Shown here: one piece after another, positions 1 through 4,275 of the stretch
Numbering within the stretch: the first letter of the stretch is position 1
Layout: every line of letters begins with the position of its first letter
From: a virus
Lineage: Duplodnaviria; Heunggongvirae; Uroviricota; Caudoviricetes
Direction: 5' to 3' (one strand)
Length of the DNA: 6,658 nucleotides
Virus record (IMG/VR): IMGVR_UViG_3300007790_000263
Span: 1-6,658 of that record
Notes under the pieces: generated by a model
Told to the model about the DNA's origin: nothing
Database searches by the model: none
Seen by the model: only the letters and a program-made list of their open reading frames with translations
Position numbers and translations under genes: made by a program

Positions 1-314
1 CTACTCCCTGCTCAATATTTACTACAAATTTAACAATAAATTAAAACATATCAAACTAAACAATGGGGGGTAAGATTCACTCATGAAATGTATTAAAAAT
101 GATTCATCAGCTAGCCACAGTACTTTCTTACATACGACGTGCCTTCACTTTCAACTCCCGCCAACTCACCAATCAGGACAGGAAAGCAGGCAGAAATCCC
201 TCAAAAACCAAAAAAACAATTTTTATACTGAAAATCAACAAGTTAAACAATGAAAATTATCCTCCCCATCGATTTTCACCTCATCAAAAAGAGTTTTTTC
301 TAATATAGAATCCT

Positions 315-341
315 TTGTTTCATCAGTTTTTTTGTTATAAA
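315..341 (+). promoter_or_regulatory. Putative sigma70-type promoter for the membrane-protein/TIR operon (extended -10 TGtTATAAA at 333-341, weak -35 TTGTTT at 315-320)
   Basis: TGnTATAAA-like extended -10 about 30 nt upstream of the ATG at 373, followed by a GAGGA Shine-Dalgarno at 363-367. The -35/-10 spacing is short (~15 bp) and the region is AT-rich, so hexamer matches are easy to find by chance. Confidence 0.3.
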
Positions 342-372
342 GTATACTTTTGATCAAAGTCTGAGGATATTC

Positions 373-831
373 ATGAGTACAGAAAACTTACAACCAGAAC
401 ATCGTGATGACGGATTACCCGCTAAAATAGCAGCATTAGCAAGTCTGCAAGCCATAATTGCAAGGATGGCTTCAAATTCACAATTAATGAAAACGTGGGC
501 CATCACTATCGTTACTGGATTCATAGCTATCAAGTCGACTTTTGGTGGACTTGGGTATCTATCTTATCTAGTGCCGATTCTTATTTGCATTTCATTCTCC
601 TTTCTTGACTCTTATTATCTTTCTCAAGAAAAGATATTTAGAGATGTTTATAATAAATTAGCGGCCATTCCCGTTGGGAACGAAATGATGTACCTAGATT
701 TCAAAGGCGAAATATATAAAACTTCACAAGAAGAAAATAATTCATTAATGATTTGTTTCAAGTCCCCATCAATTAGTTTATTTTATATCCCAATGGCAAT
801 CATTTCTACAGTGATATTAATCATAGGATAA
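373..831 (+). CDS. Small membrane protein (152 aa, about three predicted TM helices); candidate effector or partner of the downstream TIR-like protein
   Basis: ORF from the track; GAGGA at 363-367 sits 5 nt before the ATG. Hydrophobic helix-length stretches at about aa 41-57, 59-78 and 133-152 (C-terminal ISLFYIPMAIISTVILIIG). Only 4 nt separate its stop from the next start, implying an operon. AT-rich codon usage matches the neighbouring gene. No family recognised by eye. Confidence 0.65.
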   Translation: MSTENLQPEHRDDGLPAKIAALASLQAIIARMASNSQLMKTWAITIVTGFIAIKSTFGGLGYLSYLVPILICISFSFLDSYYLSQEKIFRDVYNKLAAIPVGNEMMYLDFKGEIYKTSQEENNSLMICFKSPSISLFYIPMAIISTVILIIG

Positions 832-835
832 TATT

Positions 836-1654
836 ATGCTTGTTAAATTCAGAATAGATCGAAATACAATTACAAATAACAGCACAATTTTAAACGCTAA
901 TGACAACCATTTAATTTACTCAAACCTAAATGACACAGATATAAACTCAAAAATATTTGACGCTGTAAATGGTGAAATATCAGCAAAGAAACTAGCCGAC
1001 GAACTATTTCCTGAAAACGAACCACACATTTTTATATCTCATAGTAGCAAAGACGTAAATGTAGCAATAAGTCTAGCAAACACTCTTTATGCAAAATATA
1101 AGATAACATCTTTCATTGACTCCCAACTTTGGGGACATATTGACCACGCACTAAAGGAAATGCATAATCGATACTGCAAGATCCCCGGCTCATCTTATTA
1201 CCACTATGATAAATCTAATAACCTACTATCTCATATGCACGCCATACTAAGTATGGCTTTAATGAGAGTAATGGATAACGCTGACAGCGTTATATTTATC
1301 GAATCCGGCAACTCAATTTACCAATATATGGGAGATACTACCATTGCTCCCCAAGAAGCAATTGAAAAAACATCTGAAACATTATCTCCATGGATATCCT
1401 CTGAGGTGAATTTTGCAAATACCTTAAGATTGAAAGGCCATAAAGATAGAGAACAACCATTAATGGAAAGCACAGATTCATACTCTTTAAACAAGAGTAA
1501 TATTAAAGCAGACTCCTTACCCAAAATAATACATGAAGTCAACTTAAGTAAATTCATAGAGATAGACAACAAAAAATTCAAAGAGTCTTTATCATTAAAT
1601 GAAACAAATCCAATAAAAACTTTAGATATGATTTACCAAATATATGCTCAATAG
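836..1654 (+). CDS. TIR-like domain protein (ThsB-like / DUF1863-type), 272 aa, with N- and C-terminal extensions
   Basis: ORF from the track; AGGA at 823-826 upstream. Residues 64-72 (IFISHSSKD) match the first beta-strand signature of bacterial TIR/ThsB-like domains (compare vFfSfhyqD). TSFIDSQ forms a plausible second strand. SPWISSE (aa 184-190, Glu codon at 1403-1405) resembles the S-x-W-C-x-x-E-l motif that carries the catalytic Glu of TIR NADases. About 60 aa N-terminal and 70 aa C-terminal to the domain have no recognisable family. Confidence 0.7.
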   Translation: MLVKFRIDRNTITNNSTILNANDNHLIYSNLNDTDINSKIFDAVNGEISAKKLADELFPENEPHIFISHSSKDVNVAISLANTLYAKYKITSFIDSQLWGHIDHALKEMHNRYCKIPGSSYYHYDKSNNLLSHMHAILSMALMRVMDNADSVIFIESGNSIYQYMGDTTIAPQEAIEKTSETLSPWISSEVNFANTLRLKGHKDREQPLMESTDSYSLNKSNIKADSLPKIIHEVNLSKFIEIDNKKFKESLSLNETNPIKTLDMIYQIYAQ

Positions 1655-1682
1655 GTAGTTTTTATTTTTAGCATCTAATAAA

Positions 1683-1714
1683 CCGTTGGCACATCATATA
1701 CAACGTGCCAACGG
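1683..1714. terminator. Stem-loop at the island boundary: perfect 10-bp inverted repeat CCGTTGGCAC / GTGCCAACGG with a 12-nt loop; possible bidirectional intrinsic terminator
   Basis: Inverted repeat read directly (1683-1692 and 1705-1714), 28 nt after the TIR gene stop. The T-rich run lies on the left side, so it gives a U-tract (UUUAUU) for minus-strand transcripts; the plus-strand side has a poor U-tract. Confidence 0.45.
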
Positions 1715-1861
1715 AACGAGTCAATTACAATTATTTTATGGCAGGAAAAACTGACGAATCAATATCTGGTTCGGTTGCTGTATCAATACGGTTCAGCAAC
1801 ACCTAATATTTCTTCCATGCCGCCAGCAATGAGGTCTCCTCTGCCGCCACAATACCCAAAT

Positions 1862-2002
1862 CTACGGCATCCTGAAGCGGTGCAATATGCTCACCCTGAT
1901 TTTATCTTCAAAAATCCGGTCGCATCCTGCACAGTTCAACGCATTACGTTGTAGATCGGTATTCTGGTCATTTGTTGATACGCGTACATAGCCAATAAGC
2001 AT
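1862..2002 (-). pseudogene. Truncated serine DNA invertase (Gin/Hin/Pin/Cin family), N-terminal ~35 codons only
   Basis: Minus-strand ATG at 2002-2000 preceded by GGGAG. Codons 1-35 translate to [35 protein letters not shown], which matches the invertase N-terminus including the catalytic-Ser motif YVRVST, as recalled. After codon 35 the frame reads [11 protein letters not shown] and stops at 1862-1864; none of the three frames downstream resembles the rest of an invertase. Intact invertases are about 180-190 aa. Confidence 0.75.
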
Positions 2003-2028
2003 GGTAGATCTCCCTGACAAAAGCAGGA

Positions 2029-2421
2029 ATGATGCCATTTGCTCGTTATTTCTGCATTTTCATAAACGTTGGTTTGGGAGAAGCGGCTAAAAGGAATGTA
2101 GGGACAGGGGCGAATCAGATACCTGATATGGGTAGCTTCACGCTTTCTGTTTCAGGTACTGGATATCAAAAATTACCATCAGGTTTTATTCTTCAGTGGG
2201 GTTCAATCGGCGCACCAGGCATTGCACAGGATGTGGTAACCCATTTTCCGATTGCATTTCCAAACCGATGTCTGCGTGTTTTGGTCTCACAAGACTACAC
2301 ACCAGATAGCGGGGCTGTTGGTTATATTGCCTGCGCAGGTTTTAGTTCCGACCCGGTTAAATTTATATCCAGAGCCGGTACTCCAGGTCTCGGCGCTTCA
2401 TTTTTAGCGTTAGGCTGTTAA
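2029..2421 (+). CDS. Alternative tail-fibre C-terminal variable cassette (promoterless; in frame with the fibre constant region after inversion)
   Basis: ORF from the track. Its ATG at 2029 lies outside the invertible segment and has no proper RBS (AGGA abuts the ATG). From the crossover site at 2057-2082 the frame reads [10 protein letters not shown], with the same frame and GLGE junction as ENLGLGEG in the expressed fibre gene. TAA stop at 2419-2421 is followed by a good RBS and the tfa' start. Confidence 0.6.
2057..2082. other. Left invertase crossover site (hix/gix/pix-like 26-bp site, TTTTCATAAACG-TT-GGTTTGGGAGAA)
   Basis: Inverted relative to the site at 3925-3950: its right half GGTTTGGGAGAA is the exact reverse complement of the left half TTCTCCCAAACC of the other site. 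Has the AAACC-NN-GGTTT core architecture of hixL (TTCTTGAAAACCAAGGTTTTTGATAA, from memory). Lies 55 bp from the invertase start. Confidence 0.75.
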
Positions 2422-2442
2422 TTTAGCTATATGGAGTGAAAA

Positions 2443-2883
2443 ATGAATTACATATATTCCGCGACTACAAACTCTTTCTATCCACTGGAAATGAAAGAGG
2501 ATTACACTCAAGCTGACTCATGGCCAGATGATGCTGTTGAAGTTGATGAGCAGGTGTATATTGAGTTTTCCGGATTACCGCCGGAAGGAAAAATCCGTAT
2601 CGCTGGAGAAAATGGTTTTCCTGCATGGTCTGAAATTCCACCACCAACACCTGAGGAACAGATTGCTGCAGCCGAACTGGAAAAGCAGCAACTGATTAAT
2701 CAGGCCAACGATTATATGAACAGTAAACAATGGCCTGGTAAAGCGGCTATTGGTCGTCTGAAAGGTGAGGAACTGGCGCAATATAATCTGTGGCTGGATT
2801 ATCTGGACGCACTGGAGCTGGTCGATACTTCCAGTGCGCCAGATATTGAATGGCCTACGCCTCCGGCAGTTCAGGCCAGATGA
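2443..2883 (+). CDS. Tail fibre assembly protein, alternative-orientation copy (Tfa' / U'-like), 146 aa
   Basis: ORF from the track; GGAGTG RBS at 2432-2437. C-terminus DIEWPTPPAVQ carries the W-P-x-x-P ending typical of Tfa chaperones and parallels DVIWPELPEA in the convergent tfa. Lies directly downstream of the alternative fibre cassette. Confidence 0.75.
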   Translation: MNYIYSATTNSFYPLEMKEDYTQADSWPDDAVEVDEQVYIEFSGLPPEGKIRIAGENGFPAWSEIPPPTPEEQIAAAELEKQQLINQANDYMNSKQWPGKAAIGRLKGEELAQYNLWLDYLDALELVDTSSAPDIEWPTPPAVQAR

Positions 2884-3457
2884 CATCCGGCGCGGTGCTG
2901 GTATCTGTTGCCGTCACCGCGTCAATGTAATCCAGCACAGCGTTAAGCCGGGTTGTTTCTGCCTGCGTCAGTTTCCGCCCGGCCTGTAATTTCAGCTGAA
3001 TCAGACTAATGGAAGCCATTGCTGCATCAATCAGTGACTGGCGCTGTGCTTCTGCCGCTTCTACTGCGGCACCGTGTTGTGCCTCAGAATCTGTCACCCA
3101 TTTCTCACCATCCCATTTATCATATGTCGTTAACGGGACGATAGTGGTTGTATTTTCAGGGTAATCACCCGGAGCTGTGATTTCTTTTGCTTCTCCTGTT
3201 TCGGTGCTATAGATAATTTCACCGCGATGGTCTGGCATATATTCCCATGAGTTTAAATCTACTGAACGGCAGATTGCATAACCAGCCTTATATGTGCCAG
3301 GAGCATCTAAACAGGAATATGCCGGGATACCGACACCAACGGCAAGATATTCATTTGAAGTGGAAATATATTCCCGTGTTTCACCATCATAGTTATAGAC
3401 GGTAATATTCCCCGCCTTCGTGGCAATAAGTTCGCTATTTAATACGGCTTTATCCAT
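2855..3457 (-). CDS. Tail fibre assembly protein (Tfa / U-like chaperone), 200 aa
   Basis: ORF from the track. Its start overlaps the fibre stop (TAATG at 3455-3459). C-terminal DVIWPELPEA motif. Sits immediately downstream of the tail fibre, in the position of Mu U / P2 G. Confidence 0.8.
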   Translation of the reverse strand: MDKAVLNSELIATKAGNITVYNYDGETREYISTSNEYLAVGVGIPAYSCLDAPGTYKAGYAICRSVDLNSWEYMPDHRGEIIYSTETGEAKEITAPGDYPENTTTIVPLTTYDKWDGEKWVTDSEAQHGAAVEAAEAQRQSLIDAAMASISLIQLKLQAGRKLTQAETTRLNAVLDYIDAVTATDTSTAPDVIWPELPEA

Positions 3458-4275
3458 TATGCAGCTCTCACGATATAGTTAAATGCAATATTTCGTGGAC
3501 GGGTTTCGCTCCCACCTGTGTTACCAATACTCCCTCGTGTATGTAGCGTTGGTGATGGAATCAGAGTTCCTCCGGCATCGGCAGCATCAAGCCCCCGGCC
3601 TTGCGTATATGCTCTTCTGAAGATTGTCGCCAGTTCCCATTCCTCTTTTGAATCATACCCATCGTTGGCAACAACAATATGGCGGTGTTTTTCCAGCATC
3701 CCAGTCTGAATGCTCAATAAAGCACGTCCTGCATCAATACCACGCCCGTCATCCCATCCACGAATAAACTCACCACGGAGATCAGGTAGTTTCCCTGATG
3801 GATATGCTGTAGCAAGATGGGGATATTTCACCTTATCAAAGGCAGCGCCGTTGCATTTCAGCCAGCCCGTTGGCGGGGTTGCGGAGGGCCACGGAACAGG
3901 CACACCAACAGGTAATGCAGAGCCTTCTCCCAAACCAAGGTTTTCGAGAGCCGTTTTCACCGTGCCATCCGATTTGATATCACCAAACGGATTCTTGCGG
4001 CTCAGGTATTCAACAGCAAACCCCGATCCCAGCAATTCAACAAAACCGGGCAGATCACCATTATCAAGCACATCCCGTTGCGTTTTATCACTTACAAACT
4101 GGGCCAGAGCTGCAGCAATAAAGCTGGCCTGCCGAATAACCTTATTGACTTGCGCACTGGAGGCTTTCCCTGCTGTAAATCCGGATAAAAGCGCGGGCAA
4201 CGCTTCCCATTCCTCCTGCGATATAACATTGGCATTTCGATCCGTTGCAAACGCTTTAAAGTCATTTTTCGCCAT
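3457..4275 (-). CDS. Tail fibre protein (constant N-terminal part outside the invertible segment, variable C-terminal tip inside it)
   Basis: ORF from the track (longest form 3457-4293). I prefer the ATG at 4275-4273 (MAKNDFKAF...) because it overlaps the upstream stop as ATGA and has GGGGAG about 10 nt upstream, whereas the 4293 start has AGGAG only 1 nt from the ATG. C-terminus ...[19 protein letters not shown] matches the conserved ending of Tfa-dependent fibres (lambda Stf / T4 gp37 / Mu S type, from memory). The crossover site lies in-frame at ENLGLGEG. Confidence 0.8.
3925..3950. other. Right invertase crossover site (TTCTCCCAAACC-AA-GGTTTTCGAGAG) inside the tail-fibre gene
   Basis: 26-bp site with the AAACC-AA-GGTTT core, close to the hixL consensus. 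Inverted partner of 2057-2082. Falls at about codon 112-118 of the fibre gene, at the constant/variable boundary. Confidence 0.75.

Follow-up and report, generated by a model that had tools for sequence, protein, structure and literature searches.

The 152-aa protein encoded at positions 373-831 of the window, i.e., the whole 6,658-nucleotide stretch of viral DNA analyzed herein (IMG/VR record IMGVR_UViG_3300007790_000263), is very probably ThsF, the effector that a type V Thoeris system deploys at the membrane to abort infection. This system lies at the tail-fibre end of a prophage of E. coli, as a moron of two genes (thsF-thsB), and both of its proteins were homologous to those of the validated pair from Bacillus thuringiensis, indicating that the window cassette is a true type V Thoeris homologue. 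The first-pass annotation of this DNA had described the product as a minimal membrane effector triggered by its partner, and this reading was well supported by the published type V listing of the operon, by the homologous validated pair, and by the adjacency of a TIR gene in 63 of 79 family loci.

Organization of the thsF-thsB cassette

The window represents the terminal part of an E. coli prophage, and its positions 1-2083 showed 99.95-100% identity to strain KOr019 and two canine isolates. A low-GC island at approximately 264-1750 (GC 0.31-0.35, compared with 0.44-0.52 in the rest of the prophage) contains 373-831 (152 aa) and 836-1654 (272 aa), two genes in the same orientation, and is followed from approximately 1730 onward by tail-fibre assembly and pin-type invertase remnants, an invertible tail-fibre segment, and baseplate genes. 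The features of the cassette and its border were assigned as follows.

264-372, plus strand: 5' leader of the cassette with the presumed promoter region and ribosome-binding site, conserved with the 84%-identical lambdoid-prophage copy
373-831, plus strand: thsF, the three-TM type V Thoeris effector (very probable), 152 aa, assigned from the ORF, hydropathy, AF2, PADLOC, and homology to B. thuringiensis ThsF; product WP_052431252, PADLOC PDC-M50A, PHROG 19896
836-1654, plus strand: thsB, putative TIR signal synthase of 272 aa, assigned from PADLOC ThsB1 and homology to ThsB P0291; product WP_042108952
1683-1714, no strand assigned: perfect, terminator-like hairpin with a 14-bp stem, 29 nt past the thsB stop codon and within the conserved cassette
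1731-2038, minus strand: tail-fibre assembly gene and pin-type invertase, both as remnants, from the RefSeq annotation of the 100%-identical KOr019 locus

The 84%-identical copy resides in a different (lambdoid) prophage, and its alignment starts at window position 256-264; the block conserved with that locus (L002) spans window positions 256-1834 and takes in the hairpin at 1683-1714, which was scored on the minus strand by the scan and has a palindromic stem. A GAGGA Shine-Dalgarno sequence was found at 363-367, 5 nt ahead of the thsF ATG, and the gap between the end of thsF and the start of the thsB ORF was 4 nt. Since a consensus scan of positions 1-372 gave no convincing sigma-70 promoter, the cassette promoter is presumed to lie in the leader. 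The remnants at 1731-2038 show where the cassette was inserted, at the end of the tail-fibre module of the prophage, and the 58-aa ORF at 1862-2038 matched the Resolvase N-terminus only. The small ORFs at 83-253 (plus), 99-308 (plus), and 354-533 (minus) were unsupported and were treated as spurious. A 215-aa hypothetical gene located just upstream of the window in KOr019 was also rejected as a part of the system, because it has no Pfam match and is missing from the lambdoid-prophage copy.

The 1,880-bp tail-fibre segment at 2064-3943 runs opposite to its counterpart in the KOr019 locus, which is otherwise 99.9% identical. Aligned blocks overlapped by 20 bp at both junctions (repeats 2064-2083 and 3924-3943), and short inverted repeats are thus implied. 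The pin-type invertase persists as a 58-aa N-terminal remnant, apparently cut off at the Thoeris cassette; given this truncation, the inversion would either have been carried out by another Pin/Gin-type recombinase in trans or be older than the truncation.

Distribution and mobility of the cassette

The cassette was present in 12 of the 5,426 complete E. coli genomes, always on the chromosome, three of them carrying the window allele and nine an 85% allele, and both genes are designated as 'hypothetical protein' by RefSeq in all 12 genomes (H46-H57). It was found in two unrelated prophage backgrounds, the 84-85% allele (L002, NZ_CP049343.1, 5245-9391) being situated at the tail-fibre end of a lambdoid prophage, and the latter locus is a small defence cluster in a prophage moron position. 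There the cassette adjoins an AAA_15/AAA_21 ATPase and HNH endonuclease pair, which is retron-associated per RefSeq. The dN/dS values between the two E. coli alleles were 0.22 for thsF and 0.21 for thsB; both genes are under purifying selection.

Close homologues (55-83% identity) occurred in Enterobacter, Morganella, Pectobacterium, Xenorhabdus, Cronobacter, and Erwinia. In Vibrio phage 10N.286.55.A5_PE002 (L089, PQ189363.1, 1347-2635), an element of 14 kb from Vibrio cyclitrophicus that belongs to the Vinavirales (tectivirus-like), a gene designated 'Thoeris__ThsB_Global' comes right after the integrase, with a gene for a distant homologue of ThsF (147 aa, 26% identity, E 3e-5) next to it, and two sister elements have the same arrangement. 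Insertion sequences were observed at two further loci: thsF and thsB are separated by an IS91-family transposase (Y2_Tnp, E 4e-44) in Erwinia tracheiphila (L003, 1722-4483), and an IS3 transposase splits thsF in two on a conjugative Klebsiella plasmid (L086, NZ_AP021974.1, 3270-5297). These disruptions may represent the inactivation of a toxic effector.

Homology to the validated type V Thoeris pair

Thoeris types V-XI were defined in December 2025 by Yirmiya et al. (bioRxiv 10.64898/2025.12.03.692087), with type V consisting of ThsB and a three-TM effector, annotated as DUF2270 and renamed ThsF therein. Phage defence was demonstrated for the type V system of B. thuringiensis DAR 81934, whose ThsB alone, without the effector, made 3'cADPR on infection; the addition of 3'cADPR, not of 2'cADPR or cADPR, arrested growth only in system-bearing cells, and the Tad1 sponge abolished the defence (Yirmiya et al., 2025). 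Of proteobacterial type V systems, only the Vibrio cholerae one was tried therein, and it did not protect E. coli MG1655. Table S1 of the preprint lists IMG gene 2649505888 as 'DUF2270 - Type V' with the TIR cluster 2734579397, a cluster that also holds the B. thuringiensis ThsB and the type IX ThsB, both 3'cADPR makers by LC-MS. The window ThsB matched this IMG gene residue for residue over the 268 residues compared; ThsF and the type V system are accordingly already known, and the window operon itself is catalogued in the preprint. The survey of E. coli TIR systems by Wang et al. (2024) includes one system with a TM partner.

Because the authors of the preprint warned that the effector labels in Table S1 are noisy, we compared the window pair directly with the validated B. 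thuringiensis pair. The validated ThsB was found in the protein collection as P0291 (100% identity), and the gene directly downstream of it encodes a 141-aa ThsF. The window ThsF was 34% identical to the latter over 133 residues (E 4e-20), and the window ThsB was 30% identical to P0291 over 207 residues (E 3e-29). The window ThsB also matched PADLOC ThsB1 (E 7.7e-43). Its alignment with P0291 takes in the FISHS strand (residues 66-70 of the window protein) and a putative catalytic Glu, E190 in SPWISSE, which is paired with the glutamate of SPWIYHE in P0291; the catalytic glutamate of TIR NADases/cyclases thus appears to be retained. In the family databases, ThsB had no NCBIfam model, and its Pfam result was a sub-threshold TIR_2 match alone (E 0.02).

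The validated Bacillus locus (L087, FNYB01000013.1, 1-6759) is flanked on one side by a gene with a diadenylate-cyclase domain and an unannotated 271-aa gene, and on the other by a UvrD-helicase and OLD-TOPRIM/AAA_15 (Gabija-like) pair, a defence-island context. A Bacillus luti family member (L083) was considered as a link to the validated system and was rejected, because it adjoins a different ThsB type of 193 aa.

Architecture of ThsF

A 19-residue Kyte-Doolittle scan of ThsF gave hydropathy peaks at approximately 42-60 (1.4), 57-79 (2.0), and 133-152 (2.3), the first of which is weak and includes K54. The AF2 model, a monomer built on an 18-sequence alignment (mean pLDDT 81.8, pTM 0.72), placed helices at residues 8-57, 62-98, 111-118, 125-129, and 132-151. 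Across 57 homologues of approximately 30% identity, residues 42-53, 65-78, and 136-148 were hydrophobic with essentially no K/R/D/E, and the hydrophobic pattern kept at such divergence is thus not due to chance. Hydropathy, the AF2 model, and the family-wide charge-free segments all identified three conserved, charge-free hydrophobic helices (approximately 41-57, 62-79, and 133-152) that span the membrane, and no other domain, soluble or otherwise. As for the remaining segments, residues 1-40 contain 4 K/R and 4 D/E, and residues 79-130 contain 6 K/R and 8 D/E.

These results were in good agreement with the earlier description of the 373-831 product as a 152-aa membrane protein without a soluble domain, in that the ORF is real and the helices proposed from sequence inspection were recovered as three peaks kept charge-free in the homologues, the C-terminal one (133-152) reaching the last residue. 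Two elements of that description required revision. The N-terminal segment of approximately 40 aa is present, but as an amphipathic helix continuous with TM1 rather than as a separate segment, and the proposed charged loop of approximately 50 aa is confined to the variable loop at 99-130, whereas residues 79-98 form a helical extension of TM2 that carries invariant residues.

No Pfam or NCBIfam model matched ThsF, with no Pfam match even at E<=10, so that the protein showed no affinity to a housekeeping membrane family; a confident match to such a family would, by the first-pass annotation, have counted against an effector. A profile search of PDB sequences with ThsF found nothing, and no solved structures resembled the ThsF model beyond generic helical hairpins.

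The ThsF family and its association with TIR genes

Comparison of ThsF with the four PADLOC PDC-M50A models gave E values of 3.7e-26, 1e-19, 1.5e-13, and 2.5e-12, the best match covering residues 18-151. At a cut-off of E<=1e-3 and with clustering at 50% identity, the ThsF family comprised 3547 clusters, almost all of them stand-alone proteins of 130-180 aa, with no Pfam annotation among the matches listed. The 80 family loci from other species gathered with a 14-sequence alignment, 79 of which had a called family member, spanned Clostridia, Bacilli, Bacteroidota, Proteobacteria, CPR bacteria, and archaea. In 63 of the 79 loci, no more than 150 nt separated the family member from a TIR-type gene of the same orientation, and 2 more had such a gene nearby; several of the remaining 14 were at contig ends or, in one case, broken by an IS element. 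By Pfam, the 92 tight neighbours matched ThsB_TIR (52), TIR_2 (30), and TIR (11). At least three unrelated TIR architectures pair with the ThsF family, in both gene orders and in two-TIR arrangements, and such pairing with several unrelated TIR architectures is the signature of a shared downstream effector.

Many family loci had more elaborate arrangements. A three-gene form consisting of a TIR gene (~196 aa), a ThsB_TIR-like gene (~163 aa), and thsF recurred in L005, L016, L034, L055, and L067, and thsF was flanked by TIR genes on both sides in L006, L018, L029, L047, L050, and L065. Two ThsF loci were situated approximately 6 kb apart on JAEDJD010000001.1 (L016 and L045) and likewise on JAFRXL010000038.1 (L055 and L075). 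From these multi-TIR loci, several sensors may feed one effector type. Large partners were also observed, namely an 874-aa upstream gene in L013 and L044 and a 1170-aa upstream gene in L039; in one large partner, beta-propeller/WD-like repeats (Pfam WDR55, IFT140 propeller) are joined to a TIR at the N-terminus, and another is helicase-like with a C-terminal FISY-type TIR-like stretch, recognized by eye only. Their composition suggests that the large partners are sensor-fused ThsB variants.

Concerning the published DUF2270 label, ThsF matched none of PF10028 (DUF2270), PF11683 (DUF3278), and PF24838 (8xMP), even at E<=10. These small multi-TM families received repeated weak matches from ThsF relatives: among 71 relatives, 25 matched DUF2270 (E<=0.1), 30 DUF3278, and 5 8xMP, with best E values of 1.2e-3, 2.9e-4, and 7.9e-6, respectively, and 8xMP was matched by 5 of 57 in the other set of relatives (best E 7.9e-6). 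The scores listed for the relatives were all below the curated cut-offs, those for DUF2270 being 12-15 bits over approximately 40 residues against a gathering threshold of 25 bits. The validated B. thuringiensis ThsF had 8xMP as its sole match, almost full length, at 15.9 bits (E 0.012) against a threshold of 30 bits. The DUF2270 label for ThsF therefore fails the direct Pfam test. Remote homology of ThsF to DUF2270 is possible, and DUF2270, DUF3278, 8xMP, and the ThsF family may form one superfamily. The SLATT Pfam models matched neither ThsF nor the sets of 57 and 71 relatives.

Conserved residues and the putative signal pocket

Two independent alignments identified R31, S36, K40, D79, and E86 as invariant in the ThsF family, and Q26, M32, N35, L83, R90, Y93, F137, and Y138 as near-invariant. 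The conserved polar residues were located in the helix just before TM1 (26-40) and in that just after TM2 (79-93). In the latter, D79, L83, E86, R90, and Y93 are spaced at i, i+4, i+7, i+11, and i+14, and thus they lie on one helical face. The loop at 99-130, which varied in sequence and length across the homologues, probably does not serve as the receptor. In the first-pass annotation, the N-terminal segment and the loop had been proposed as the only candidate sensing surfaces; conservation of 26-40 and 79-93 agreed with a part of this proposal, whereas the 99-130 portion is disfavoured and the published AF3 models place the pocket between protomers.

In the published AF3 model, Bacillus ThsF forms a homo-heptamer having positively charged pockets between the protomers (Yirmiya et al., 2025). 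From this conservation, a ThsF pocket formed by the pre-TM1 and post-TM2 helices is predicted at the membrane interface, probably between protomers as in the published model, and R31, K40, and R90 at the cytoplasmic interface would be compatible with the positive inter-protomer pockets of such a ring. R31, S36, K40, D79, E86, R90, and Y93 are direct targets for mutagenesis. A more speculative proposal, which we regard as rather unlikely as a whole, is that ThsF is among the smallest ligand-gated membrane effectors (~140-150 aa, three helices), with a receptor that is not a domain but an inter-protomer membrane-interface pocket formed by R31/K40/R90 and the D79/E86 helices, and that the proteobacterial prophage-borne branch answers a TIR product other than 3'cADPR or requires an additional input, which seems to be the case for one of the Bacillus type V systems. 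The E. coli cassette would then provide a native-host model for a gating mechanism without a solved structure.

Proposed mechanism and alternative explanations

For the window locus, we infer which signal is used, how ThsF oligomerizes, which residues line the pocket, and that the membrane is permeabilized; in the preprint, membrane disruption by ThsF is likewise an inference, with the oligomer and pore coming from AF3 models (Yirmiya et al., 2025). In the proposed mechanism, ThsB (836-1654) would detect phage infection and use NAD+ to make an isomer of cyclic ADP-ribose, 3'cADPR being the most likely one. ThsF would form a ring-shaped homo-oligomer in the inner membrane, with its N-terminus cytoplasmic and its C-terminus outside, an orientation that would place both polar stretches in the cytoplasm. 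The signal would bind basic pockets at the cytoplasmic membrane interface between neighbouring protomers, lined by the pre-TM1 (Q26, R31, N35, S36, K40) and post-TM2 (D79, L83, E86, R90, Y93) helices, and ligand binding would open or rearrange the ring, such that membrane integrity is lost and the cell stops growing or dies before phage release.

By analogy with the Bacillus system, 3'cADPR is somewhat favoured as the signal at the window locus. The window ThsB belongs to the cluster (2734579397) that holds the two 3'cADPR makers shown by LC-MS, and ThsF shares its motif residues with the 3'cADPR-responsive B. thuringiensis protein. Against these points, the same architecture might work with another signal (2'cADPR, canonical cADPR, His-ADPR, or an unknown one) or with a second, infection-derived input, an explanation that we consider possible though clearly less probable. 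It draws on the second validated type V system, that of Bacillus sp. 1NLA3E, and on the type IX system, neither of which was triggered by added 3'cADPR although their TIR proteins make it (Yirmiya et al., 2025), on the modest 30% identity of the window ThsB to the validated 3'cADPR producer, and on the pairing of the ThsF family with at least three different TIR types. Furthermore, in a tblastn search of plasmids with the validated ThsB, relatives of approximately 50% identity adjoined SIR2 (type I) or macro-domain (type II) genes, with the sole exception of one Klebsiella plasmid carrying thsF split by an IS3 element. Since the same ThsB clade pairs with SIR2 and macro-domain effectors as well, clade membership does not fix the signal.

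A reversal of the roles, in which the membrane protein is the sensor or anchor (e.g., for membrane perturbation at phage entry) and the TIR protein is an NAD+-depleting effector, would have precedent in CBASS, Pycsar, pAgo, and Avs, where TIR domains serve as NADase effectors, and is raised as a caveat for unverified configurations in the preprint itself (Yirmiya et al., 2025). This explanation is highly improbable in view of the Bacillus TIR protein making 3'cADPR on infection without the effector, the toxicity of exogenous 3'cADPR only to system-bearing Bacillus cells, and the loss of the Bacillus defence with the Tad1 sponge; the combination of the ThsF family with many unrelated TIR architectures also points to a shared downstream effector. 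A further alternative is that ThsF has no connection with the TIR gene and is instead a holin-like or superinfection-exclusion protein of the prophage, or a housekeeping membrane protein; its small size with three TM helices like some holins and its site at the prophage end by the tail-fibre genes, a place of many kinds of morons, might suggest as much. This alternative can be dismissed for practical purposes: a TIR gene adjoins the family member in 63 of 79 loci, which come from Firmicutes, Bacteroidota, Proteobacteria, CPR bacteria, and archaea; no holin or housekeeping family was matched in Pfam, NCBIfam, or PDB; and the pair, with thsF 4 nt from thsB, moves between different prophages as a unit.

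With ThsF as the signal-gated effector, the reading made from the sequence alone had correctly anticipated the logic of a defence system whose experimental description appeared only in late 2025. Little new knowledge comes from the locus itself, and the remaining interest lies in the gating of ThsF, which lacks a structural explanation. As the genes are still annotated as 'hypothetical', the effector has no Pfam or NCBIfam model, and ThsF has no solved structure, the native E. coli prophage allele is a convenient candidate for studying how a small protein reads a cyclic ADP-ribose signal.

Comparison with known systems

The logic proposed for ThsF is the same as that of type VII ThsH/SLATT, type II ThsC (TM + Macro), the type X ion channel, and the TM effectors of CBASS and Pycsar, in which the nucleotide second messenger of a sensor enzyme activates an oligomeric membrane protein, leading to cell death or arrest. 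Unlike those effectors, ThsF has no separate ligand-binding domain, the whole protein being ~140-150 aa, and it had no sequence match to the SLATT or Macro families. PADLOC PDC-M50 is a computational candidate without an assigned mechanism; its gene A matches the window ThsF nearly end to end, and the window TIR protein matches the ThsB1 models and not a PDC-M50 partner model. Literature searches for 8xMP and PDC-M50 returned nothing relevant.

The closest counterpart is the type V system of B. thuringiensis DAR 81934, for which defence, signal, and toxicity have been demonstrated; those of the window allele are predicted by homology. The window cassette differs from it in belonging to a Gram-negative host as a prophage moron, in its gene order (thsF-thsB versus thsB-thsF), and in approximately 11 extra, poorly conserved N-terminal residues of ThsF. 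Both systems are two-gene operons that combine a TIR protein of approximately 250-270 aa having an N-terminal extension with a three-TM protein of approximately 140-150 aa, and their ThsF proteins share the motifs RMASNS..K.W, LD..(Y/F)L.QE..FR..Y, and S...FYIP.
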